Positions 860 through 12,958 are shown, numbered from the stretch's first letter. The stretch: DNA of 64,000 nt from an uncultured Alphaproteobacteria bacterium (GCA_902570265.1 CACFXF010000009.1:1231-65230); one strand, 5' to 3'. The notes: generated by a model not told the origin, from the letters alone. A program made the numbers and translations.

Positions 860-1792
860 ATGTTCCATATGACTTTATTTAAAAAAATCATCTTTAATTT
901 TATTAAGATTTTAATTTTAAAATTTCTAATTAGTACACCCATTTTTGCTAAGCAAAACGATTGTAAAATAACTGCGGAAATGAGTAATGTCCCTGAGGAA
1001 TTATATGTAGATACTTACCCTATCATTATAACAGGAATAAACGAACTAGAGTCAACTTTCGATTACCAATTCTACCTAGGTTACTGGTATGAAATTGGCG
1101 GTGATATGCCTTACTGTTTCTTTGAATCAAATAATTTAGAAGAAGGAATATTTAATCCCTATTTTGAATTTCAAAATGCTATTGATTTGGAAAGAGTCAC
1201 TTCATTTGGAGTAGAAATAGAGGAGGAAGGAGTATATGTAAGTGCTAAATATAAAGGTAAATTTAAAGGTAAGTTTGATTTCACTATGTATCCTTTTGAT
1301 ACTCAAGACTTACATGTTGACATATCATCAACTTATTCCACAGATGATTTCAAAATTTATCTTGAGGATCAAAAAAATTCATTATTAGACGCGTTGGAGG
1401 TTCAGGGTTGGGATAAAATTAATTTTGCAAAAAAAATAGGTGTTGAAAAATGGGATCAAGATGATGAAGAGTATGATTTGATAAGTTATACAATCACCTT
1501 AGATCGACAGGTTTTTTCAATTTCTTTACGGCTTTTTTTGCCCCTGTTAGTAATTGTATCTTTAAACTTTTTATCCTTATTGCTAGAAAGAAATGATTTT
1601 GAATCAAAAATTGAAATACAATTAGCTGCCTTGATAGCAGTAGCAGCTTATTCTATACTTATGGATACAAAAATACCTGATCTACCTTACCTTACAATTG
1701 CCGATTCAATAATTGCTTTATCGTTTTTTTCTTCGGCAATTATACTCGCAATTTCTATTCTTAAAAAAAGAAAAAGGGATTACCAAAATTAG
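860..1792 (+). CDS. GLIC/ELIC-like pentameric ligand-gated ion channel homologue that ends about 10 aa after M3 (no M4)
   Basis: A signal peptide is followed by a roughly 180-aa extracellular-type domain. FTMYPFDTQDLHVDISS matches the Cys-loop-equivalent RRYPFDSQTLHIYLIV of GLIC as I recall it, and GWDKINF is also present. M1 is FSISLRLFLPLLVIVSLNFLSLLL, M2 is IEIQLAALIAVAAYSIL, then comes the PDLPYLT linker and M3. The stop codon lies inside repeat R1. Confidence 0.7.
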   Translation: MFHMTLFKKIIFNFIKILILKFLISTPIFAKQNDCKITAEMSNVPEELYVDTYPIIITGINELESTFDYQFYLGYWYEIGGDMPYCFFESNNLEEGIFNPYFEFQNAIDLERVTSFGVEIEEEGVYVSAKYKGKFKGKFDFTMYPFDTQDLHVDISSTYSTDDFKIYLEDQKNSLLDALEVQGWDKINFAKKIGVEKWDQDDEEYDLISYTITLDRQVFSISLRLFLPLLVIVSLNFLSLLLERNDFESKIEIQLAALIAVAAYSILMDTKIPDLPYLTIADSIIALSFFSSAIILAISILKKRKRDYQN

Positions 1793-1868
1793 ACATTAAT
1801 AGGCCATGGTTTTTGGGGCACCCTCGGGATATTTCGTAGGGGTAGGTGGAACGATTGTTATGTTTAGG
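1783..1868. repeat. Island repeat copy R1 (central hairpin segment missing)
   Basis: CCAAAAT..TAATAGGCCATGGTTTTTGGGGCACCCTCGGGATATTTCGTAGGGGTAGGTGGAACGATTGTTATGTTT aligns by eye with R3-R5. It overlaps the last codons and stop of the channel gene. Confidence 0.7.
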
Positions 1869-1885
1869 CAATTTTTTTGGCAAAT

Positions 1886-2119
1886 TTATTTTAGCAACTG
1901 AGTAAATCTTTGACCTTTATCTATTATTTTTGCTTCTAATAAAACTTCTGTGATAGCGTCCATCATCCCAAGGTCCTGATCAGTATATTCACCTTTTTCA
2001 ACTCTGCGTGCAGCCATGTAAAAATTAAGTGCTCCTAATGCATGATGATCACGCTTTTCACCGCCAGCAATTATTGATCCAGCATAATGATTAATTTTAT
2101 TTTCAATGAATATATCCAT
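1886..2119 (-). CDS. Hypothetical protein, 77 aa
   Basis: It is the only sizeable ORF in the R1-R2 interval. I recognise no motif in it. Confidence 0.35.
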   Translation of the reverse strand: MDIFIENKINHYAGSIIAGGEKRDHHALGALNFYMAARRVEKGEYTDQDLGMMDAITEVLLEAKIIDKGQRFTQLLK

Positions 2120-2211
2120 TTTAAACCCTTTTTTATTATGTATCTTAAATTAATACTTTTTATTTATGTCATATTTTTTTTAAATAAAATTAGAACAAAT
2201 TCAAATAATTT

Positions 2212-2270
2212 CCACCAAAAATATGTGAGAAGTAGTACTTGCTAATAATAGACTATGGTTTTTTTAGGAG
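2212..2270. repeat. Island repeat copy R2 (short)
   Basis: CCACCAAAAATATGTGAGAAGTAGTACTTGCTAATAATAGACTATGGTTTTTTTAGG shares the CCAAAA..GTGAG.AGTAGTACTTGCTAA..ATAG.CTATGGTTTTT core with R3 and R5. Confidence 0.7.
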
Positions 2271-2286
2271 TAATTTCTTAATTTTT

Positions 2287-2736
2287 TCAATGGTGCTTAT
2301 GAAAATCTATTTCCATTTTTTTAGTTAAAGGTACTTTATCTGCCATAAAATGACCATGATCATTTGAGTTCAAAGTTATTTCGATAATATTTTTCCCATT
2401 TTGCAACAACCTAGAAGGGATATGAAAATACGGGGAATATTGTCTAAATTTTGTACCATTAATATAGATATGAGCATGTCCTTCATTGCCATTATTTTTT
2501 CCATTAACGTTTTGGGGAGAAAATATAAAATTAGATGTATTAATTATAAGGTTAAAACCATCCATTTTATCTTCAAATAATTCAAAACTTAAAGTTGGAT
2601 AGGGTTTTTCTGCTTTTATCATTTTGTGTTTATTCTCATGTTTATGACTACTGTCATGATCATGATCATGATTTTCACTAGCATTCATAATATTAGTTAA
2701 AAAAATAAATATACTGATCAAAACCAAATTCTTCAT
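2287..2736 (-). CDS. Secreted histidine-rich putative metal-binding protein
   Basis: The likely start is the internal Met (MKNLVLISIFIFLTNIMNA signal peptide), not the ORF-track start at 2847. The mature end is ENHDHDHDSSHKHENKH, with an EGHAHIYING motif and an HKHH C-terminus. Confidence 0.55.
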   Translation of the reverse strand: MKNLVLISIFIFLTNIMNASENHDHDHDSSHKHENKHKMIKAEKPYPTLSFELFEDKMDGFNLIINTSNFIFSPQNVNGKNNGNEGHAHIYINGTKFRQYSPYFHIPSRLLQNGKNIIEITLNSNDHGHFMADKVPLTKKMEIDFHKHH

Positions 2737-2830
2737 AAACTTACCCCGTAATATCCCTAGATAATTATGACTAACTATAGATAAAAGCAGCAAATTTAAA
2801 GTTAAAAAATTATTTCTAAATACTATTGTT

Positions 2831-3295
2831 TTATTGCTCAACCTCAAAATCTAATTCAATATTACCAGCTTTTTTAAAAATAAATTTAGCCAAGTGAGGA
2901 TCCAACCATTCTAAACCTTTTTTTTCATTAAAAAAAATTAATTTAAAAGTATCCTCGTCAAAATATATTGCTTCACCACCACTAATTTCTAATCCTTCAT
3001 TTAAATCAACTTTAATATAATTCTCTGAAGCACCTTTTCTCTTCCAAATTTCAAAAGACAAAGAAAATTTTGGAATTATATTCATTAAATATTCACTATC
3101 TTCACCAATATTTTCTATTGTTAAGAACCCATAAGATCTGGAAACTTCCTGTTCAGTTTCTTTTATTAAATAAGGATGATAGATTATTAATGAACCGTGT
3201 TGTTCTTCATGAGCATTAATAGGACTTAAAAATAGGATGAAAACTAAGAACGATAAAATTTTTAATCTGTAATTTTTAAGCTTTTTCATAAACAA
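2831..3295 (-). CDS. Secreted PCu(A)C/DUF461-like protein; canonical Cu ligands not evident
   Basis: It has a signal peptide ending SPINA-HEEQHG. The pattern SLIIYHPY..GFLTIENIG..L...FEIW...IKV.L.EGLEI.GGE.I.F....FKLIFFN...AKFIFKKAGNIELDFEV follows the PCuAC beta-sandwich pattern as I remember it. The H(M)..M..HxM ligand positions are not conserved. Confidence 0.35.
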   Translation of the reverse strand: MFMKKLKNYRLKILSFLVFILFLSPINAHEEQHGSLIIYHPYLIKETEQEVSRSYGFLTIENIGEDSEYLMNIIPKFSLSFEIWKRKGASENYIKVDLNEGLEISGGEAIYFDEDTFKLIFFNEKKGLEWLDPHLAKFIFKKAGNIELDFEVEQ

Positions 3296-3345
3296 AACAA
3301 TAAATAATTTTTATTATTTGGAAAGTTTATTTTGAATTGCACCTA

Positions 3346-3427
3346 CCAACCAAAATGTGTGAGCAGTAGTACTTGCTAAAATAGGCTATGGTTTTTGGGA
3401 TACCCTTGAGAAATATATTACGGGTGA
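3346..3427. repeat. Island repeat copy R3
   Basis: The sequence is CCAACCAAAATGTGTGAGCAGTAGTACTTGCTAAAATAGGCTATGGTTTTTGGGATACCCTTGAGAAATATATTACGGGTG. Confidence 0.75.
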
Positions 3428-3507
3428 ATTATGTAAAAACTTAACTTTTTATTTTTTTTAAGCAAATAATATAAGTACTAAATAAGACAAAAGGAGTTAA
3501 AATCAAA

Positions 3508-3813
3508 ATGGTTGGAATGATTAACTGTATGAGGTTTAGACCTAAAGAAGGTCAGGTGGAAGCTTTGTTTAAGGCTTATGCAGAATACGTTAAAGATTAT
3601 CCATTTGATGACATAATGCATCAAATTATTGATCTAGGAACTGGAGAATACGCCCTAATAGGATTACATCATAGCATTGATACTTTTGTAGATATTATGA
3701 ATAGAGATAATCGTGTAAGTGATATGTTGAGAGAGTTCGTAGAGCCCTATGAAGACGGAGAAAGTTTTCATTCATTCTCGGGTCCTGTTGTAAACTATAA
3801 TGACTATCTGTAG
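3508..3813 (+). CDS. Small cytoplasmic protein, possibly ABM/Dabb-like ferredoxin fold, 101 aa
   Basis: AAGGAG lies about 8 nt upstream of the ATG. The size and the pattern (RFRPKEGQVEALFKAY...ALIGLH...) are reminiscent of antibiotic-biosynthesis-monooxygenase-like domains. The match is weak. Confidence 0.4.
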   Translation: MVGMINCMRFRPKEGQVEALFKAYAEYVKDYPFDDIMHQIIDLGTGEYALIGLHHSIDTFVDIMNRDNRVSDMLREFVEPYEDGESFHSFSGPVVNYNDYL

Positions 3814-3835
3814 TAAACATAAAAAAACTTTAATT

Positions 3836-4345
3836 CTAAAAACCTTGTTCTTCAATGCATTTCACTAACTCACTTACAGATGCAGCAGACCCTTTTAAAG
3901 AGAAACTACTGATTATCTTATCATTATCATCTAAATGGAAAAGCTCTTGACCTTTTCGAATTTCTTGAATCAATTCAATCACTGCTTTATCAGATCCAGA
4001 GTTTAGATCCATTACTAACCATCCAGAATCTAGATAAGGGCTTTCTGTATTCCAACTTGCAAGATCATCAACTGCAAATTGGAATATTTTTAAGCTTTCA
4101 TTTACATCTGACTCATCATCAAAAATAGCTAATTCTTCAACTTTAGCATTAACGTAAATTTGAAATTCTTTATTACCTAAACCATTTCTTGCAATGCATG
4201 CTGTACGTCTATCATCATACCTTAAAAGTACAACTTCCCAATTTCCTTTTTTGAAAAGTACCTTTTCATCAAATACTTCAGCTGAAAAAGAAGGATAGGT
4301 AAAAAAGAGATAAAATAATAATGTACAAAACTTAAATAATTTCAT
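3836..4345 (-). CDS. Secreted hypothetical protein (weakly IalB-like)
   Basis: The start was moved to the internal Met, giving the signal peptide MKLFKFCTLLFYLFFTYPSFSA. GNWEVV...C and the C-terminal FSLKGSAASVSELVKC resemble invasion-associated-locus-B type proteins. Confidence 0.4.
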   Translation of the reverse strand: MKLFKFCTLLFYLFFTYPSFSAEVFDEKVLFKKGNWEVVLLRYDDRRTACIARNGLGNKEFQIYVNAKVEELAIFDDESDVNESLKIFQFAVDDLASWNTESPYLDSGWLVMDLNSGSDKAVIELIQEIRKGQELFHLDDNDKIISSFSLKGSAASVSELVKCIEEQGF

Positions 4346-4439
4346 TTTAAAACCCCAGTTACTAAAGCAAAAAATCAAGTATGACTTCAATATAAATAAT
4401 TGTAATAAAAAAAAGTTAAATTTTTTAAATTAAAAATTT

Positions 4440-4798
4440 CCAACCAAAAAGTGTTAGTTATATCACTTCCTTATAATAGGCTATGGTTTTTGGGGTACCT
4501 TCAAGGATATGTCTTAGGGGTGGGGGTCATAAGTGTTATGATTATTATGTTCTCACGAAAAATTGACCAACTGCCCCTTTTACTGCCCCCTTTTGCACAT
4601 TTTCCCTATATTTTTCATTTTACAGAAACCAATTTCTGGTCATATAATTTAATGAAAGCAAGTTTCAGAGATGGAGGAAACACCAATGAAATATAGTGCA
4701 AAATGCCATTGTGGTGAAATAACTGTCTAGATGGAACATGAATCCATGATGCAGTTTTTGTTTCATTGTTCTATATGCCATCAAAGAATTGGAACTTC
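4440..4798. repeat. Island repeat copy R4 (long form, about 359 bp), the left direct repeat of the adhesin block
   Basis: It is collinear with 12262-12621. After a divergent first 40 nt it is roughly 85-90% identical by eye. It includes the short-repeat core, a conserved C-rich leader and the first 37 codons of a GFA-family gene. Confidence 0.85.
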
Positions 4799-4808
4799 AT
4801 CGGAATAG
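4686..4808 (+). pseudogene. GFA/CENP-V family gene fragment (5' end only, in-frame TAG)
   Basis: It reads MKYSAKCHCGEITV*MEHESMMQFLFHCSICHQRIGTS. The TAG at 4728-4730 replaces the GAG seen in the second copy, and homology ends at 4798. Confidence 0.75.
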
Positions 4809-4901
4809 TAATCAATAGTCTCAGTAGTTATAGATATTCAATAAAATAAGGCATTATTGTTATCAGCACTCTCAGTAAAATCTTTAGCTAGCTATGGTAT
4901 T

Positions 4902-5111
4902 CTAAGCCAATCGCCCCCTCAATCGCACCCCTATATTATCTAAAGCAGTATCTAACTTATCATCATTTGTATTAAAGAAGTGAGCATAGATTTTCATTGT
5001 TATCTGTAGTTTAGCATGCCCTAGCCTCTGTTGAATTTTTGGTAGATATATTTCTTCAGAAACCAAATTGCTAGACTTGTGCTTTTTTGATTTTGGAATT
5101 TTTGCCGAGTT
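4902..5111 (-). pseudogene. Tyrosine recombinase (phage-type integrase) 3' remnant
   Basis: The minus-strand frame reads NSAKIPKSKKHKSSNLVSEEIYLPKIQQRLGHAKLQITMKIYAHFFNTNDDKLDTALDNIGV...*. LGHxxxxxTxxYxH is the Box II / catalytic-Tyr motif. There is no room for the N-terminal 250+ aa before the lipoprotein gene at 5175. Confidence 0.65.
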
Positions 5112-5174
5112 AAAAAAAAATTTAATAATTAGTAATTCTTAGTAAAAAGGTATTTAAATGCAATCAATTATTGA

Positions 5175-5993
5175 CTAGTTACCATTTTTTCCTAGGAAAG
5201 CTCCCCTTATTTCAATTGAACCAGTATCTGTATCGTCAACGGAAAAAACTCCTCCAATCTCAGCTGAATTGGGACCAAAAAATGTGCCATCAGATTCCAT
5301 CTGATATTGATTAGTCAAAGTATTAGTAATAATTCCATTTTTTAATTCTATTTTGTTAAGACAAATTCTATTTCCATTACAAATAGAACCACTTGGGAAT
5401 ATAATATCTACAGCATTAGAAATTGGACAATCCCTGCAACTTAAATTTAGCATAGACATCTTCCCAGATAGCGAAGTCAATTCACCAACCAGCTCCCCTT
5501 CTAATCCATTAAAATCAATTTGAATTTTACTGTTTCCAGTCAAGTCATATAATGCAGTCCCATCATTTATAAAAATTCTAGATGTTCCCAAGTAAGTATA
5601 ATTACCCTCAACTATGTCCCCTGAAGATTCAGGAATTCCTATAATTCCGAAAGAACCATTCAAAGTATTACCTTCAGGAATATAAGTCACAAAACTTGTA
5701 AGATCCTTGATTGGAATTCCATTCTCTACATTCTTACTAGGCGCACCATCTTTTTCATTAATAATAACCAAAGCAGATCCTTGTTTCCTTACAAATTCTC
5801 CCTCAATATTCTCTAAATCTAAGGTAGTTCCGTCAATAGTTATTAATTTTAAATTAGATACATCTAATGAATTTAAATCATACAGAGATCCCTTTTGCTC
5901 TTCCATTTTTTGTATGGATTGACCACTACATCCAGTCATAATGAAACCAAATATAATTAAAAATATTATATTAAATTCCTTGATAAGCGACAC
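5175..5993 (-). CDS. Lipoprotein with a TbpB/fHbp-type C-terminal beta-barrel (surface-lipoprotein-like)
   Basis: It has a GTG start with AAGGAG about 9 nt upstream and a lipobox FIMTGC. GNSKIQIDFNGLEGELVGEL and DGTFFGPNSAEIGGVFSV...GSIEIRGAFLGKN match the F.GP.A.E.GG.F....G.F signature of transferrin-binding-protein-like barrels. Confidence 0.55.
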   Translation of the reverse strand: MSLIKEFNIIFLIIFGFIMTGCSGQSIQKMEEQKGSLYDLNSLDVSNLKLITIDGTTLDLENIEGEFVRKQGSALVIINEKDGAPSKNVENGIPIKDLTSFVTYIPEGNTLNGSFGIIGIPESSGDIVEGNYTYLGTSRIFINDGTALYDLTGNSKIQIDFNGLEGELVGELTSLSGKMSMLNLSCRDCPISNAVDIIFPSGSICNGNRICLNKIELKNGIITNTLTNQYQMESDGTFFGPNSAEIGGVFSVDDTDTGSIEIRGAFLGKNGN

Positions 5994-6014
5994 AAATATT
6001 GCTCCTTTTATTAA

Positions 6015-9000
6015 TTAAATTAGAGTAAAGTTATCAGGTGTAAACTCCTCAACCCTAATGTCATAAATCAATACTGTACAATCTCTATCAGAAAATTCTG
6101 AATGACCGTCTGGGGTAGTTTCAATCTTAGTAAGAACTTCTTCAAATCCATTATAATTAAAAGACTTGAGGTCAATCTTATCTTTGTCAATTTCAAAGTC
6201 TCTTCCCACTGGCTCAAATGAGCTTATATTGTTAAAATTCAGATTAAATTTAGCAATAATATCGTTTCCATCAGAGGGTGAGAATATAAATAAATCTGAT
6301 CCATTTCCTCCTTCAAGCAAGTCATCTCCAGCTCCACCCTCAAGTGTATCATTTCCATAAAAATAATCCGAAAATAAAAGATCGCCAATTATATAATCAT
6401 TTTCTGAGTTACCACTTAAAGGATTATCGCCCGTACCTCCAATTAAAATATCTGCTCCAGAACCACCTTCTGCTCCACTATTTTTACCAGCAGCAACAAT
6501 GAGATCATCATATTGACTGCCTTTTATAAGTATATTACTAAATGCATCTTTGAAAACGTTCCTGATGCTCGGTGGTAAAATAGCTTGTTTTAAAGAAATA
6601 TTTAACCCTGAGCTGGAAATTACCTCCTCATTGAAACCAACTGAATCAATGAAACTTGCTTTTACTGTTAAATTCTTTCCTATATCTTCATTTTTTATTA
6701 CATAATCACGTTCAGTTGCACCTAATATCTCTACATTATTTCTAAACCATTGAAAATCTAAACTTCCATAACCATCAGGATCAATAAAATTAGGGATTGC
6801 AAGAAGGGTTTCACCAACATCTGCCCTCCCACTTATTGTAATATCTCCTTTAGCAGGAGTATTACTAGCTGCAACGTTAATAACAAATTGATCAGTTATT
6901 TGGCCGCCATTTCCATCGTTAACTGTTATTTCAAAGGTATTCAGACCAAAATTTGATCTAGATGGATTGACTGTCAAAATTGTGGAAGATCCATCAAAAT
7001 TACACCAAGAAGGTAATGCAGCACCCCCAGGAAGTGTAATGGACATAGTTAAGTTGTGATCATCTGGATCTGTGAAAAATTGGTTAAATGATAAATTTTC
7101 AGAAGTATTTTCATAAAGGTTCCAAATCGGTATTGTTTTCTTTAAAACAGGATTATCGTTCACATTAGAAATGTTTAATACAACTGCTTTTGAACCTGAT
7201 AAAGCACCTAATCCATCATCAGTAGCAATAACTGTAAAATCATATGAAGATTTAGTTTCATAATCTGCTGAAGCCTTTAATCTAACTTCTCCATCATCTG
7301 CATCAATTGTAAAATATGATGAATCAGCACCGGAAATAGAAAATGTTAGATTATCGCCTGAATCCACATCAGTCGCCGTGGCAGTATATAAAACAGAACT
7401 ATTTGCTTGGTTTTCCGCAGCAGTAACCGTTGCAGAAGAAGTTATTGAAGGCATTTCGTTTACATCATTTACACTTATCGTAACTGCTTCTGTATCACTT
7501 GATCCATCAGGATCAGTAGCGATGACATTAAAAGAGTAGGAATTTTTTGTTTCAAAATTTGCTGAAGAATTTAATCTAACTTCTCCATCATCTGAATCAA
7601 TAGCAACCAAAGAAGCATCTGTTCCAGAAACTGAGTAAGTCAAGATATCTGTAATATCTGCGTCGGAAGCAGAGACATCATATATCACAGTGTTAGTATT
7701 AGCATTTTCTTGGATACTACCAGTTAAACTAGTAGTATCAATCGTAGGACTGGACTCATTGACGTTACTAACTGTAACCGTAAGTACTTGAGTAGAAAAA
7801 ATTCCTGAACCGTCGGTAGTTGTTGCTTTTACTTCAACCTGATAGGTATTATTTCCATCTGAATCTAGTGGAACTTCAAAGTTTGGGGCGGAATTAAAGG
7901 TTAAATTACCTGATCCGTCTATACTGAACTTACTCCCATCCAAACCAGAGTTTATATCCCACGTCACTCCTACATTTGCTGAAAATGTAGTAACAGCGGT
8001 TTGATTTTCCTGCTTTGTTATTGCTGAAGTATCTGAACCTGCAGAATTACTAGGTCCAGTAATTAAGGGTGTCCTAACATTAACGGTTAAAATACCAGTA
8101 TCAGTCCCACCATTTCCATCAGATACAGTATAGTTTATTGTCTCACTAATATTCGCCGCACCAGAAGGAGGTGTATAGTTTATCGTTGTTCCATTATGAC
8201 TTACAGTACCACTTCCTCCGTAACTTATTGATTGTATAGTTAACCCATCACCATCCTCATCTGTATCATCATTAAGGACGACAATACTATTAAGTGCCGT
8301 ATTTATAGTAGTTATTCCTAGGTCATCTGTAACTTCAGGGCTATCATTTTGATCTGATATATTGATAGTAATAGCCTTACTAGTTGAGGATGGAGTACCT
8401 CCATCATCTGTTGCTATTACATTCAAACTATAAGAGTTTTTAACCTCAAAGTTTGCAGAATTATTTAATCTGATTTCCCCATCATCCGAGTCTATAGTCA
8501 CTAAGGAAGAATCCGTACCGCTAACGGAGAATGCTAATGATTGTCCAGAATCAGGGTCAGAGGCTGAAGCATCATAGGCTATGGTACCTATTGAAGCATT
8601 TTCTGCTATTGAACCGCTTGAACCTGAGGAAATTACTGGAGGGTCATTAAGATCATTAATATTTAGGGATATAGCTTGCGTATCAGAAAGATTTCCGCCA
8701 ACACCATTGTCTGTTACAGTAACGTTAAAACTATAAGAACTCTTATTCTCATAATCAGCTGAAGCTTTTAACCTAACTTCTCCGTCATCAGCATCAATTG
8801 TAAAGTGCGATGAATCAGCACCTGAAATCGAAAATGTCAAGGTGTCAGCAGTATCCAAATCTGTAGCTTCAGCATCATAAATCACAATGCTAGGGTTCTG
8901 GTTTTCATCAGCATTTACCACTGATCCAGATGTAATATTTGGGGCATCATTGATAGAAGTAAAATTAATGTCGAGGGTACCTGTCCCCGACTGTTCCGCT

Positions 9001-10556
9001 CCACTAATACCATTAATGCTGGTCCCTTTAACTGTTAAAGTTTTTGATGCTGGCGGATTATCTGAAGTGCTTTCATATTTTACCTTTCGAGCAATGTCTT
9101 GAACCATTCCATCAGTAATGGTTGTAGGAGCTGGAATACTTTCTGTTACACTCACATTATCTACATATAGTTGCGCACCTGCCCATCTACCTCCTGAAAA
9201 ATCAAAAGTTCCAGAGACAAATACAAAACGATAAGAGCCTGGATTAGTAACGGTGACAGTCTCTGTAGCCCAAGATGTTGTTGCACCTCCTGAAGAGCCC
9301 GTTTCATTTAATATTTCTACAAAGCTATTATCATCTTTATTGACGATATATCCAAAAACATCATAGGCATCGGACCCTCCTACGGCTTTCCAATCAAAGC
9401 TGACTTTATCATTTGCTCTTAAGAAAACAGTATTATCACTATAAAGTGCAGGACCTCTAACAATATCATAACCTGACTTTGCAATTATTCCAGTGCTTGT
9501 TAATCTAACAGAGTATTCTCCTCCACCATCATTATTCACTGCGGCTGAATAAGTTCCAACAGTAGTCGGAATATTTTGATCAGAAATAGCTCTTCCAATT
9601 GCTGGAGGGGTAGTGTCTGTTGGCGTATTCAAACCACCAATTTGGGTTACTCCAAAATAAATAGGGCCAGACTGTATTTGCCAGTTTCCAAAAGAGGAAG
9701 ATCCATCATTAGTTTCAAAATTTCCATTTTGAAAACTATTTGAAATATTTACCCTTAATGGATTACCATTTAATCCATTCTTAGTTGAATCAACGTTACC
9801 TAATATAGCAGCACCAGTTCCATTACCAACGTAAACAACAGATCCTATTATCGAGACCTGGCCGTTTATGGTCGAAGCTGCTCCATCATTAGAAAATCTA
9901 AGAAAGTCATGGCTATCAGAGGAAGAAAGACTAAATTCTAAATACCCCCCTGCATAATTATCACCACCAGCAGCTCCACCAGTAATTGATATGTCGCTAT
10001 CTATAACTGAAAGTGCAGCTTGTTCATTATAAGATAAGTCAGTAAGGTTGGTTATTGAGGGAGTGCCCAAAGTTCCTGGGATAGAAGAAGGATAGAGTGA
10101 AGCACTTTCAATTCTTCCAACTGTAGTTTCTAAATCCCAATCACCACCAAAGGATGGTGAGCCCGAAATATCATCTGATGCTGCAAAATCAACACCTGAA
10201 ATTCTTGAAAGAAGTTGTAAGAATTCTTCTCCTTTTCCACCACTACCAATGTCACATCCATAAAGATGGATATCTGCTTCCTTACCTAATGAATTACCTA
10301 TCGTGATTAAATCTTTGCTAAAATTTTTTGCATTATCAGTGGTTACTGAACCACTGGAAAATTTTAAAACACCTGATTCACCATGGCTAAAAATATGTAA
10401 GGAACCTAGATTACTGTCATTACCAATAATGTTAGCAATTTGACGAAGAGCATTTTGATTAGTATCTAAGATATGAACTAAATAGTGTTCAGATAACTCA
10501 TCTAATAAAGCCAAATATCCAGGCACACTTTTATCAATAAATACTACTGCCATCAT
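6015..10556 (-). CDS. Giant (1513 aa) DUF4347-cadherin-RTX repeat protein, putative T1SS-secreted adhesin
   Basis: The N-terminus (VVFIDKSVPGY...HIFSHGESG...HLYGCDIG) looks like DUF4347. At least 6 cadherin-like modules carry the ...D.D.GD.L.FS.SG.D...F.ID...G...L....D(Y/F)E....Y...V.A.D motif. The C-terminal nonapeptides are GGSGADILIGGTGDN and LEGGAGDDLLEGGNGSDLFIF (about 6280-6500). Confidence 0.85.
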   Translation of the reverse strand: MMAVVFIDKSVPGYLALLDELSEHYLVHILDTNQNALRQIANIIGNDSNLGSLHIFSHGESGVLKFSSGSVTTDNAKNFSKDLITIGNSLGKEADIHLYGCDIGSGGKGEEFLQLLSRISGVDFAASDDISGSPSFGGDWDLETTVGRIESASLYPSSIPGTLGTPSITNLTDLSYNEQAALSVIDSDISITGGAAGGDNYAGGYLEFSLSSSDSHDFLRFSNDGAASTINGQVSIIGSVVYVGNGTGAAILGNVDSTKNGLNGNPLRVNISNSFQNGNFETNDGSSSFGNWQIQSGPIYFGVTQIGGLNTPTDTTPPAIGRAISDQNIPTTVGTYSAAVNNDGGGEYSVRLTSTGIIAKSGYDIVRGPALYSDNTVFLRANDKVSFDWKAVGGSDAYDVFGYIVNKDDNSFVEILNETGSSGGATTSWATETVTVTNPGSYRFVFVSGTFDFSGGRWAGAQLYVDNVSVTESIPAPTTITDGMVQDIARKVKYESTSDNPPASKTLTVKGTSINGISGAEQSGTGTLDINFTSINDAPNITSGSVVNADENQNPSIVIYDAEATDLDTADTLTFSISGADSSHFTIDADDGEVRLKASADYENKSSYSFNVTVTDNGVGGNLSDTQAISLNINDLNDPPVISSGSSGSIAENASIGTIAYDASASDPDSGQSLAFSVSGTDSSLVTIDSDDGEIRLNNSANFEVKNSYSLNVIATDDGGTPSSTSKAITINISDQNDSPEVTDDLGITTINTALNSIVVLNDDTDEDGDGLTIQSISYGGSGTVSHNGTTINYTPPSGAANISETINYTVSDGNGGTDTGILTVNVRTPLITGPSNSAGSDTSAITKQENQTAVTTFSANVGVTWDINSGLDGSKFSIDGSGNLTFNSAPNFEVPLDSDGNNTYQVEVKATTTDGSGIFSTQVLTVTVSNVNESSPTIDTTSLTGSIQENANTNTVIYDVSASDADITDILTYSVSGTDASLVAIDSDDGEVRLNSSANFETKNSYSFNVIATDPDGSSDTEAVTISVNDVNEMPSITSSATVTAAENQANSSVLYTATATDVDSGDNLTFSISGADSSYFTIDADDGEVRLKASADYETKSSYDFTVIATDDGLGALSGSKAVVLNISNVNDNPVLKKTIPIWNLYENTSENLSFNQFFTDPDDHNLTMSITLPGGAALPSWCNFDGSSTILTVNPSRSNFGLNTFEITVNDGNGGQITDQFVINVAASNTPAKGDITISGRADVGETLLAIPNFIDPDGYGSLDFQWFRNNVEILGATERDYVIKNEDIGKNLTVKASFIDSVGFNEEVISSSGLNISLKQAILPPSIRNVFKDAFSNILIKGSQYDDLIVAAGKNSGAEGGSGADILIGGTGDNPLSGNSENDYIIGDLLFSDYFYGNDTLEGGAGDDLLEGGNGSDLFIFSPSDGNDIIAKFNLNFNNISSFEPVGRDFEIDKDKIDLKSFNYNGFEEVLTKIETTPDGHSEFSDRDCTVLIYDIRVEEFTPDNFTLI

Positions 10557-10847
10557 TATATTTTACATGAATATAATCTATAATCCAAATTTTCTCTTCT
10601 ATTAAGAAACGACTATTGTAAATTCGTATATCTAATTTATAGATAGTACATTTTTTTATAGGTGTTAATAGAAATTGGTAGTCAACAGTCTTAGCCACAA
10701 TATGCTCGTTACTATTGTTGATATAAATAGTTTTGCTTATTATTTGTGAATTAAAGTATTTTCAAAAATATCTTTTTAAGTAATTCAAAATTATAAATAT
10801 AAATATTATTCTTTATTTTTTTATTTATTTCATACATTTTATTTTCT

Positions 10848-11885
10848 ATGAAAAAGTTGGGGTTTTTAAATATAATATTTATAACATACTTTTTTTTACA
10901 TACTCCCTTAGTATACGGATCAGAAAGGTTAGAATTATATTTTCTTACTGAAAAATTATTAAATACAAAAATATTAAATACAAACGAATTTATACAATTT
11001 AGTTTAAATTCAAAATCTTTAGGCTTTAAATACTTAAAGGATAATAACAAAAAAAAATCTATATTTTTAATTAATAGAGCCTTTTATCCAATAATTACCT
11101 ATTCAGATAATATCAACGGAGGTAACCTATTCCAAACAATTCAGTTAGGTGAACTAACGTTTGAGGGTGAAGAGGAGGCCAAAGCAAAATCAGGTTTATT
11201 AATTGGTGGTGGTATCTTCTTAGATATCAAAAAACAATATGGGATAGGGAGATATCTTGATTTAAGAATGAATGCCTCATTATCTGCGGCACCCACTCAT
11301 GATTGGTTAAGCATTAGAGACAAATCCATAATTGCTTGTTCAAAAAATCATCTAAAAGAATGGTTTTTTTTTGATGCCTGTGCACATTGGGGACATAATA
11401 AAAGACAATATATAGATGAAATTAATAAAAATCTTTCAGTTTCATTAACAAGATTATTTATAACTAAAAAAGTCTTTAACGAAAGTATTTTTACAATAAA
11501 TAGACATATTTCTGATAAATATCATCAAATGCAAGGAATATTTGCATTAAATTCATTATTACCTAATGGTTACAAAACAAATTTCTCTATTACACTTGGT
11601 GAACCAATTAAAGAATTAATTTCATTAAATTACTCATTAAGTCTAGCTGTAAGCAAATATATAAAGAGAAAACCGTTGAGGCTTTCATTAAAGCAAACTC
11701 ATTATGATGGTGGAAAATTCCTTGGAATAGATAGGGAAGATACTACCCAACAAATATCTGTTTCATATCCCATCAATAACAGATTTAATATTGCTTTGGG
11801 ATATACTAGAAATAAATCTTCCATTAGTTCTTTTAGCCATAACGGACCCCACATAGAGTTTTCATTTCCTTTACGAAGTTTTTAA
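10848..11885 (+). CDS. Outer-membrane beta-barrel protein, 345 aa (possible minimal Slam/DUF560-like barrel)
   Basis: The signal peptide is MKKLGFLNIIFITYFFLHTPLVYG. It shows alternating hydrophobic strands and the C-terminal ...HIEFSFPLRSF with a terminal Phe. YSDNINGGN and the REDT...NKSSISSFSH tail are reminiscent of DUF560, recalled from memory only. Confidence 0.5.
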   Translation: MKKLGFLNIIFITYFFLHTPLVYGSERLELYFLTEKLLNTKILNTNEFIQFSLNSKSLGFKYLKDNNKKKSIFLINRAFYPIITYSDNINGGNLFQTIQLGELTFEGEEEAKAKSGLLIGGGIFLDIKKQYGIGRYLDLRMNASLSAAPTHDWLSIRDKSIIACSKNHLKEWFFFDACAHWGHNKRQYIDEINKNLSVSLTRLFITKKVFNESIFTINRHISDKYHQMQGIFALNSLLPNGYKTNFSITLGEPIKELISLNYSLSLAVSKYIKRKPLRLSLKQTHYDGGKFLGIDREDTTQQISVSYPINNRFNIALGYTRNKSSISSFSHNGPHIEFSFPLRSF

Positions 11886-11946
11886 TAAAATCTTTAAAAT
11901 TTAGCCTAAGCATATATAAAGTCTTGGAAGATCAGTTATTTTTTTA

Positions 11947-12165
11947 CTTAGAAAAGCTGTTCTTGAAGCTATTAAAGAAAATAATGATAAGACACAGAAA
12001 GAGTTAATAGAAATTATGACTAATGAAGGTTTTAAAACTTCAAAAGGTAAATCAATCAGCAAACAGCAAATGTCTGATTGTATTATTGGATTACTTGAAG
12101 AAGGTTTAATTGGGAAAACAGTTTTAGCGCATAAAGAGACTTATTACGATAGTCCACTTACTTAA
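11947..12165 (+). pseudogene. Start-less winged-helix-like ORF fragment
   Basis: The frame is open from 11920 with no ATG/GTG/TTG start. It reads LRKAVLEAIKENNDKTQKELIEIMTNEGFKTSKGKSISKQQMSDCIIGLLEEGLIGKTV, a wHTH-like pattern. Confidence 0.3.
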
Positions 12166-12261
12166 CTGACCGAACTTACTCACCATTCATTTGCATTAAC
12201 TGGTAAGCTTAGTAAGTGCAGTAAGTTCCATTCTAAATTAAAGCCACTTATTTTATATCTT

Positions 12262-12621
12262 CCATACCAAAATATGTAAGCAGTAGTACTTTCTAAGAAT
12301 AGGCTATGGTTTTTTGGGGTACCCTCAAGGATATGCCTTAGGGGTGGTGTTATGATTGTTATGTTTGTTATGTTCTCACGAAAAATTGACCAGCTGCCCC
12401 TTTTACTGCCCCCTTTTGCACGTTTTCCCTATATTTTTCATTTTATAAAAAATAATTTCTGATTGTATAATTTATTGAAAGTAAGTTTAAGAGATGGAGG
12501 AAACCCCAATGAAATATAGTGCGAAATGCCATTGTGGTGAAATAACTGTCGAGATAGAACATGACCCTATGATGCAGTTTATGTGTCACTAATCTATATG
12601 GCATCAAAGAATTGGAACTTC
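12262..12621. repeat. Island repeat copy R5 (long form, about 360 bp), the right direct repeat of the adhesin block
   Basis: It is collinear with 4440-4798. It contains the best copy of the short-repeat core (CCAAAATATGTAAGCAGTAGTACTTTCTAAGAATAGGCTATGGTTTTTTGGGGTACCCTCAAGGATATGCCTTAGGGGTGG). Confidence 0.85.
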
Positions 12622-12958
12622 TATTTCTGCTTTAGCTTGGCCTGAACATGAAATAATTATAACTGGTAATTTAAAACCTTATAAAATATTTGGTGGCATT
12701 GGTATGGATATGTATTACTATTACTGTCCATCTTGTAGTTGTTTTATATATAATAAACCTGATCTTCTTGAAGGAATGGTTTATATCCCAGCCGGATTAT
12801 TAGGAGAGCAAATAGAATTTAAACCAACAGTTGAATTATGGTCAGGCAATAGACCCAATTGGATGCAGAAAGCTCCCTCCATAATTGAGTCTTTTGCAGA
12901 CAATGGCACCTTAGAAAGACTTCAAGAGTTATTAGAAAATCTAGATCAAAGAGAATAA
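12509..12958 (+). pseudogene. GFA (glutathione-dependent formaldehyde-activating)/CENP-V family gene with an in-frame TAA
   Basis: A single 150-codon frame reads MKYSAKCHCGEITVEIEHDPMMQFMCH*SIWHQRIG...YYCPSCSCF... The TAA at 12590-12592 sits where copy R4 has Cys (CHCSIC), and the second Cys is changed to Trp. Confidence 0.7.

Follow-up and report, generated by a model that had tools for sequence, protein, structure and literature searches.

A recurring repeat, probably a composite attP-like site, separates the gene cassettes of an island in an uncultured marine alphaproteobacterium

The stretch of DNA analysed here, hereafter the window, comprises 64,000 nt from an uncultured Alphaproteobacteria bacterium (GCA_902570265.1, CACFXF010000009.1:1231-65230) and contains an island in which co-oriented copies of a repeat delimit gene cassettes. 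Our analysis indicates, with a probability of roughly three in four, that this repeat is a composite attachment (att) site, comparable to attP, of small integrative elements that use a phage-type tyrosine integrase. An earlier description of the window (the sequence-only reading) had put forward serial insertion at one hotspot, with tandem accretion, as a possible origin of the pattern, and this proposal is now well supported by the linkage of the repeat to integrase genes, by an intact element at another locus and by the turnover of cassettes between strains. The same description had considered a new kind of cassette-boundary element, which is supported in part: the arrays are indeed unusually dense and have an integron-like layout, but the site appears to be of the lambda type, the integrase is an ordinary one and no new enzymology need be involved. 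The array belongs, in our judgement, to the tycheposon-like or additive genomic islands.

Architecture of the repeat and its linkage to an integrase

A full copy of the repeat, as deduced from aligned copies, is ~110-190 nt long and modular, with its parts in a fixed order, from 5' to 3':

left extension, AAGATTAGAGAT.TTTACCT.CCC
left-arm palindrome, CCAAAATGTGTGAGCAGTAGTACTTGCTAAT
nearly invariant 25-nt block, AATAGGCTATGGTTTTTGGGGTACC
imperfect inverted repeat, ACCCTCAAG-GATATGT-CTTAGGGGT
three tandem direct repeats of 9-10 nt
distal pair of direct repeats of ~12 nt
3' of the full unit, the 3' end of a tyrosine integrase gene on the opposite strand

The left arm and the block are strongly conserved across copies and genomes (82% mean column identity, with many columns at 90% or above), and the 7-nt centre of the inverted repeat reads GATATGT in 40 of 66 copies. 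At least four flavours of the triple direct repeat can be told apart, TGTTATGAT, TGTCATAAG, GTGACATNT and ATGTCCAGT, for which we use the short names GTTATG, GTCATA, TGACAT and ATGTCCA. A single flavour runs throughout the arm in 16 of the 22 arms that could be typed; repeats that change together are the pattern expected of protein-binding sites co-evolving with their protein.

All-against-all comparison of the open reading frames (ORFs) in the loci that carry the repeat (each designated by L and a number) picked out a tyrosine recombinase. Two integrase genes of this family were found, at L012 and L039, both with visible R, H-x-x-R and H...Y motifs. The L039 integrase (P0003, 418 aa; Pfam PF00589, E = 1e-21; phrog_1 integrase, E = 6e-52) is 67% identical to that of L012, which is 294 aa long as called, probably 5'-truncated, and matches PF00589 with E = 6e-19; its gene is read towards a full copy, with ~240 nt between its end and that copy. 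Both genes lie directly 3' of full copies, which is the position of the recombinase beside a lambda-type att site. Moreover, L039 holds an intact element of about 6.4-6.5 kb (5130-11455) bounded by direct repeats of the site, namely the co-oriented full copies 4975-5129 and 11455-11650. Its gene set consists of the integrase, a 225-aa ORF, an HTH_17 excisionase-like protein, an HTH_36 protein, four small ORFs, an AAA_25/DnaB-like helicase and a 260-aa ORF.

Remnants of the same gene accompany other copies. In the window, a C-terminal fragment at 4932-5075 matches the L012 integrase (tblastn, E = 1e-8) and also PF00589, with E = 4e-4, a value under the family cut-off. C-terminal stumps (...YAHFFDKHDKKMVDTLEEIQGG...) stand just past the right arm of copies in L001, L002, L005, L029 and the window, and a sixth, in L034, lies at the contig start, hence with no neighbouring copy visible. 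Both integrases adjoin TGACAT-flavour arms, two cases being too few to relate flavour to clade, and the remnants, devoid of the N-terminal domain, are uninformative on arm flavour. The integrase is at most 28% identical to phage integrases and, judged by its sequence, is a generic phage-type tyrosine integrase. Among its homologues, an N-terminal Arm-DNA-binding domain was detected in P0007 only, where it is recognisable. Distant relatives (39-45% identity) adjoin canonical attP sites, in which a tRNA 3' half is flanked by 9-nt direct-repeat pairs. One of them, 39% identical, is encoded at L068:760-1680 (also in L069) on a 4.9-kb metagenome contig (L068), in the order integrase, attP (tRNA-Cys 3' half with ATGTTGCCA direct-repeat pairs), helicase and, further on, HTH_17. 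Compared with the integrated L039 element, these genes stand in circular permutation, and the contig may therefore represent an excised circle or a tandem copy; a terminal overlap of the L068 contig was looked for and none was found.

The way in which copies end also bears on their origin. About 50 copies are full sites. About 15 consist of left arm, block and CT(ACCC), followed by unrelated DNA; in four loci these junctions are followed within 110-180 nt by the 3' end of an oppositely oriented tRNA gene (tRNA-Asn in L008, tRNA-Ser-UGA in L017 and L023, tRNA-Ser-GGA in L038), with core genes past the tRNA. Another 16 copies lack left arm and block, and start at a weak CTNAAG that is followed by GATATGT and the right arm. 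Finally, in three copies (L013, L020 and L029) the inverted 3' 46 nt of a tRNA-Thr(UGU)-like gene abut the left edge of the block. These three classes would correspond to the attR-like, attL-like and tRNA-junction forms expected from integrase-mediated recombination. The breakpoints are concentrated in the ~15 nt that lie to the right of the 25-nt block; GATATGT is missing as a spacer from one junction class, and in the tRNA-Thr type the junction coincides with the left block edge.

Several smaller features of the unit deserve mention. A 5-nt tandem duplication directly 3' of the block (GGGG TACCC TACCC ...) recurs in many loci, for example L008:3940-3955, L032, L002:6514 and L039, most full copies having a single TACCC; it could be a recombination footprint. 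In both integrase-bearing elements, a tRNA-Gln(UUG)-like gene is represented by its 5' half, GGGGTGTAGCCAAGTGGTAAGGCAACGGTTTTTGGTATCGT, between the att copy and the integrase stop (L012:470-545, and ~11290-11370 on the reverse strand of L039), and a matching 3' half is absent from the vicinity. The 25-nt block itself resembles a tRNA-Gln anticodon arm (AGGCAACGGTTTTTGGTA.C versus AGGCTATGGTTTTTGGGGTACC), and its sequence may derive from an ancestral tRNA-Gln target. The idea that the left arm is a degenerate tRNA 3' half was abandoned, Smith-Waterman scores against the tRNA-Thr fragment being no better than those of shuffles. A promoter or terminator role was likewise discarded: consensus scans revealed no enrichment, and the one strong promoter-like site lies in the GFA-proximal flank, outside the family unit.

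The island of the window and its turnover between strains

A profile built from many repeat copies was run over the whole length of the window and recovered exactly five copies, all on the plus strand, with zero in the other 52 kb. Two 21-nt cores, AATAGGCTATGGTTTTTGGGG and GTGAGCAGTAGTACTTGCTAA, gave 4 and 3 matches, respectively, at up to 3 mismatches, against 0.00 and 0.01 in dinucleotide shuffles. The five same-strand copies that the sequence-only reading had located are therefore real, with a chance expectation of zero. The island is made up as follows:

1783-1868, plus strand: R1, left-truncated copy; 25-nt block 1798-1822, degenerate inverted repeat 1823-1845, part of the direct-repeat arm; left-arm palindrome absent
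1869-2211: cassette 1; 77-aa ORF 1886-2119 on the minus strand, conserved in sister strains
2212-2270, plus strand: R2; left arm 2215-2246, degenerate block; right arm absent
2271-3345: cassette 2; two minus-strand ORFs of 186 aa (His-rich) and 154 aa
3346-3427, plus strand: R3; left arm 3350-3380, block 3380-3404, degenerate inverted repeat; direct-repeat arm absent
3428-4439: cassette 3; 101-aa ORF (plus) and 184-aa ORF (minus)
4440-4550, plus strand: att part of R4; variant left arm, block 4475-4499, inverted repeat around GATATGT 4499-4523, three direct repeats in tandem, GTCATA and GTTATG flavours mixed
4551-4798, plus strand: duplicated flank after R4, 88% identical to 12376-12621
4571-4595, within this flank: distal direct-repeat pair, CTGCCCCTTTTA twice
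4619-4648, within this flank: promoter-like site
4686-4798, within this flank: dead 5' fragment of the GFA gene
4799-12261: cassette 4; integrase remnant, 272-aa lipoprotein-like, 1513-aa adhesin-like and 345-aa ORFs, HTH-like remnant
4932-5075, minus strand: integrase C-terminal remnant (...LGHAKLQITMKIYAHFF...), its 3' end facing R4
12262-12375, plus strand: R5, full copy; left arm 12267-12297, block 12298-12323, inverted repeat 12324-12347, three direct repeats of GTTATG type
12376-12958, plus strand: conserved right flank; distal direct-repeat pair 12394-12418, promoter-like site 12442-12471, GFA-family gene 12509-12958

ORF positions agree with the earlier placement of all copies in gaps between genes, R1 and R5 touching gene ends: R1 overlaps the final 10 nt of ORF 860-1792, and R5 extends into the 5' end of the GFA-family gene. 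The variable truncation described before was also confirmed, since R1 is devoid of the left-arm palindrome, R2 ends after a degenerate block and the right hairpin of R3 is degenerate. R4 and R5 had been taken as copies of some 360 nt. They do share a common stretch of 360 nt at 88% identity, but the repeat family accounts for no more than the first ~110 nt; the remaining ~250 nt, made up of the distal direct-repeat pair, the promoter-like site and 113 nt from the start of the GFA gene, are a duplicated flank outside the family unit. An 81-aa ORF (4451-4696) sits entirely in R4 and is probably spurious and no gene; a like frame in L027 is due to repeat conservation only. Base composition was dropped as an island signal, since the GC content of the island (32.2%) is too close to that of the remainder of the window (30.4%; whole window, 30.7%) to be distinctive.

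Comparison of gene content across strains, which the sequence-only reading had suggested, showed that cassettes change at repeat boundaries. R1 marks the left end of the island, adjoining the stop codon of the conserved flank gene 860-1792, and this junction is kept in four near-identical strains (L059-L062). These strains, whose flanks are 99% identical, have R1, cassette 1 and the left arm plus block of R2 in common, and split right after GGGGTACC into three continuations, all unlike that of the window; L059 and L061, for instance, have different genes at the position of cassette 2. The block of R2 is intact in the sister strains and degenerate in the window. In a more distant relative (L063, flank gene 76% identical), neither the island nor the repeats were found at this site. 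On the right side, the GFA-LysE adjacency is kept in all strains examined, and the stretch running from GAAAAATTGACC up to the GFA start does not vary; upstream of this stretch, arms of GTTATG, GTCATA or TGACAT type and differing neighbour cassettes occur according to the strain, and two strains have no block at all at the GFA locus. In L016 the GFA gene is itself a cassette, with a repeat on either side. Repeat-bounded cassettes also recur in another order or context elsewhere (L003 versus L009, L008 versus L011, L005 versus L030). The finding that had been named beforehand as fatal to the cassette interpretation, a genome-wide element similar to repetitive extragenic palindromic (REP) sequences amid fixed gene order, is not what we observed: at the loci covered, the copies are clustered and the cassettes turn over.

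Some of the genes in and around the island merit comment. The 1513-aa adhesin-like ORF (6015-10556) has cadherin-like repeats and C-terminal RTX-like Gly-Asp repeats, and a segment of it is 94% nucleotide-identical to L004:1-1807 of the metagenome-assembled genome (MAG) LRMED-261; this large cassette is therefore common to both genomes. At the end of cassette 4, the HTH-like ORF remnant 11920-12165 has no start codon; as a candidate for a recurrent element gene it was dropped, a single other locus (L037) having matched. The 101-aa cassette gene (3508-3813) has a homologue at 10001-10306 of L042-L049, in a very abundant organism of 26.7% GC. There the gene occupies a fixed, repeat-free locus, the 82.5% nucleotide identity is confined to the coding sequence, and its protein cluster is present in >1700 assembly blocks; the sequence comparison suggests either exchange between lineages or a widely shared small gene. 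The GFA-family gene (Pfam GFA, E = 2e-19) bears one in-frame TAA at 12590-12592, where relatives have Cys (CHCSICHQ), and is either a pseudogene or affected by a sequencing error; the 5' fragment after R4 retains the Cys codon, yet has other stop codons. The flank gene 860-1792 encodes a 310-aa membrane protein with a weak match, under the family cut-off, to the neurotransmitter-gated ion-channel ligand-binding domain (PF02931, E = 3e-4), and may represent a bacterial relative of pentameric ligand-gated channels.

Distribution and competing explanations

The exact pattern of the 25-nt core occurred at 13 loci. These belong to about seven single-cell genomes or MAGs of AT-rich Alphaproteobacteria, and several contigs of one genome often carry it. 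The pattern was also present in 25 marine metagenome contigs and had no match among 2.9 M viral contigs. Profile searches yielded 114 copies at 45 loci. Every locus is an array, with a maximum of eight copies in 8 kb, a median spacing of 1227 nt and uniform (100%) copy orientation within each locus; most intervals contain a single ORF, and the ORFs lie on the strand of the repeat in 60 cases and opposite to it in 74. Short-read contigs of this lineage often end at or inside a copy (L050, L051, L054, L056, L059-L062 and many of L014-L038), so the island is systematically under-assembled. The host is an AT-rich marine alphaproteobacterium whose records are labelled 'uncultured Alphaproteobacteria'. 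LRMED-261, the only repeat-bearing MAG with a family-level name, is assigned to Rhodobacteraceae, a label that follows GTDB r220; given this label, a SAR11 host, assumed from the ~31% GC, was dropped. A phage origin was rejected as well, given that the att region had no blastn match in 50,697 phage genomes, that viral contigs gave no match and that the integrase is merely 25-28% identical to phage integrases. A description of the repeat or of the integrase family was not found in the searchable open-access literature.

If the repeat is indeed a composite attP-like site, its palindromic left arm and 25-nt block would form the P arm, and the triple direct repeats and distal pair the P' arm, by analogy with characterized sites, with the crossover in or near the inverted repeat around GATATGT, or in the ~15 nt around it. 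The direct repeats would bind the N-terminal arm-binding domain of the integrase. New elements would insert into an att copy already resident in the chromosome, and successive insertions would yield a row of co-oriented copies, in which adjoining elements are separated by a full P-core-P' site and a half site stands wherever an element meets other DNA. Integrase and backbone genes would be deleted later, leaving cargo separated by att copies. Since the surviving copies would stay substrates for integrases acting in trans or for RecA, cassettes could be gained, lost and reordered at these boundaries. Applied to the window, R1 would be the distal junction of the island, R2 and R3 decayed internal sites, and R4 and R5 full sites, R4 heading the 7.5-kb block with the integrase stump and R5 the GFA cassette or flank. 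The additional duplication at R4 and R5 might reflect two 'att-GFA' cassettes, the upstream one cut by a deletion that would have taken the 3' part of GFA and the next att site, ending ~130 nt short of the integrase stop.

A number of observations weigh against this interpretation. Most intervals (median 1.2 kb, one ORF) are too small for an integrase plus cargo, and most copies have no detectable integrase remnant; accretion followed by decay may therefore not explain every cassette on its own. The junctions that retain left arm and block lose GATATGT and the tRNA-Thr junction falls at the opposite block edge; the family may therefore use more than one crossover point or recombinase. The island of the window is not adjacent to any tRNA gene, and only two integrase genes, one full-length and one apparently 5'-truncated, accompany 114 copies. 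The binding of integrase to the direct repeats is postulated by analogy, and neither an excised circle nor an empty site of this family is known.

The strongest competitor, which we regard as a serious possibility that nevertheless falls short of even odds, is that the repeats act as portable homology: site-specific recombination would account only for the original insertions, and RecA-dependent recombination between near-identical copies of ~100-150 nt, within the genome or with incoming DNA, would delete, duplicate and swap cassettes. This would fit the breakpoints of shared cassettes, which fall at various positions inside the repeats and not at one nucleotide, the 360 nt shared by R4 and R5, far above the size of an att core, and the arm flavour at the GFA locus, which varies by strain next to a constant downstream flank; homologous recombination at conserved flanks has also been proposed for islands of streamlined marine bacteria (PMC2217521). 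Homology, however, leaves unexplained the half-site junction classes, the clustering of breakpoints within ~15 nt to the right of the block, the co-varying flavours of the direct repeats and the strict integrase linkage. More doubtful is an integron-like platform, in which integrase-less single-gene cassettes, each with one composite att, would be excised as circles and put back by a few integrases working in trans, the array being built mainly from mobile cassettes and not from decayed complete elements. The dense, strictly co-oriented arrays with their 1.2-kb median spacing and usually one ORF, the very strong conservation of left arm and block, the identical repeat-bounded cassettes in differing orders and contexts, and the ratio of two integrase genes to 114 sites all speak in its favour. 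Nonetheless, integrase 3' stumps beside several copies indicate that some cassettes came with their own integrase, a platform integrase is absent at the array ends in the loci seen, ORFs are not co-oriented with the sites, the sites are conserved by sequence and not by fold, and circular cassettes have not been seen. Nor is the integrase IntI, as TIGR02249 scored 34.8 and 27 bits against a cut-off of 265; an integron in the strict sense, that is, an attC array, was rejected on this ground together with the lack of covariation and of ORF orientation bias. We give a similarly low credence to the bolder proposition that the arrays are a working gene-capture system, similar to integrons but of another molecular kind, where a few phage-type tyrosine integrases would excise and reinsert, in trans, single-gene cassettes tagged with ~150-nt composite att sites, and interchangeable arm flavours would act as compatibility groups.

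Two further explanations have very little left to commend them. The sequence-only reading had allowed for a structured RNA family, and a non-coding or cis-regulatory RNA transcribed from the plus strand and duplicated between genes could draw on the three inverted repeats, on a plus strand that tolerates G-T pairings and on about 90% of cells being pairable. The inverted repeats reported earlier are indeed present in the sequence, but compensatory change is absent from them: the RNAalifold consensus energy was -0.04 kcal/mol with a covariation term of zero, and in 42 copies the three helices drawn by that reading showed 1 double-sided change versus 2.4 expected, 466 of 500 shuffles pairing equally well or better. 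Moreover, hairpin halves are deleted in several otherwise conserved copies, copies stand alike at gene 5' ends, at gene 3' ends and between convergent genes, and promoter-like and terminator-like sites are not enriched. Rfam, run over the window at the gathering threshold and over 1700-4900 at a permissive one, returned only two tRNAs elsewhere and noise. With Rfam, RNAalifold and pair-counting all negative, the last of these against shuffled controls, the RNA proposal is not supported and appears highly improbable. Slightly less credible still is a selfish repeat spreading unaided into intergenic regions, of the kind represented by REP sequences and bacterial interspersed mosaic elements (BIMEs) or by miniature inverted-repeat transposable elements (MITEs). 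The unit is certainly short, intergenic, multi-copy and palindrome-containing, and assemblies often break there. Nevertheless, a spreading repeat is hard to reconcile with five window copies confined to 11 kb and missing from the other 52 kb, with wholly uniform orientation per locus, and with a unit that has neither terminal inverted repeats nor a transposase and runs on into integrase genes.

Relation to known systems

The composite attP-like site finds its closest counterpart in the tycheposons and remnant arrays of Prochlorococcus genomic islands (Hackl et al., bioRxiv 10.1101/2020.12.28.424599). In both cases, small elements combine a tyrosine recombinase, an excisionase, a replication (helicase/primase) module and cargo, repeated integration at one site pushes older elements deeper inwards (presumably so in our family), the islands of a streamlined marine bacterium are strewn with broken integrase genes and recurring att copies, and several arrays begin beside tRNA genes. 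Of these traits, the recombinase/excision/replication module is found in L039 and the arrays adjoin tRNA-Asn or tRNA-Ser genes, the recurring repeat being no tRNA fragment. Our family differs in that the repeat is a composite site of ~110-190 nt (both arms, block and direct repeats) and not a partial tRNA, in a far higher density (~one per 1.2 kb) and in its alphaproteobacterial host, and the recombinases are likened by gene content only. Additive flexible islands offer a second parallel, with 20-bp tRNA-Lys repeats in 'Ca. Methylopumilus' (PMC10872708) and partial tRNA repeats in SAR11 islands (PMC11796062): variable, strain-specific content lies at fixed sites, and attachment direct repeats separate the cassettes. 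Their repeats, however, are short tRNA 3' ends, whereas here what is probably a whole attP architecture recurs that is not tRNA-derived, and the island of the window sits between two convergent protein genes and not by a tRNA.

With lambda-type attP the repeat has in common an adjoining tyrosine integrase, an imperfect inverted repeat centred on 7 nt of spacer, arm-type repeats in tandem on the side nearer the integrase with further repeats at a distance, and an N-terminal arm-binding domain that is recognisable in homologue P0007. It departs from it in the lack of phage genes and of phage or viral-contig matches, in the low identity (up to 28%) of the integrase to phage enzymes, in the many att copies kept in tandem in one chromosome and in arm sites that are putative here. 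Chromosomal integrons, including the clusters of attC sites lacking integron integrases (CALINs), resemble our loci in their long co-oriented arrays of sites, in mostly single-gene, promoter-less-looking cassettes and in strain-variable order, but differ from them in the integrase, which is not IntI here, in our sequence-conserved sites, in the absence of ORF orientation bias and in the integrase stumps inside the array. SAR11 islands have been reported to be devoid of attC sites and to contain almost no integrases (PMC2217521, PMC11796062).

Streamlined ocean bacteria possess large flexible gene pools, and canonical mobile elements are hard to find in them. The repeat family provides a sequence-level handle on how islands are built and reshuffled in one such lineage, comprising a composite att site at cassette borders, a matching integrase family, an intact element and strain differences at the borders. 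What is new here is the probable whole attP as recurring unit, the integron-like density and the interchangeable arm flavours, the working mode being that of known systems. With the 25-nt block as a query, island borders and cassettes can be sought in metagenomes, where short-read assemblies break at the island because of the repeat that carries the block, and the co-varying arm flavours provide a natural setting in which to study the diversification of integrase arm specificity. Should integron-like capture prove true, streamlined marine alphaproteobacteria, reported to have neither integrons nor most mobile elements, would possess a dedicated platform for cassette exchange. Overall, these data would extend the tycheposon/additive-island model from cyanobacteria to a marine alphaproteobacterium.

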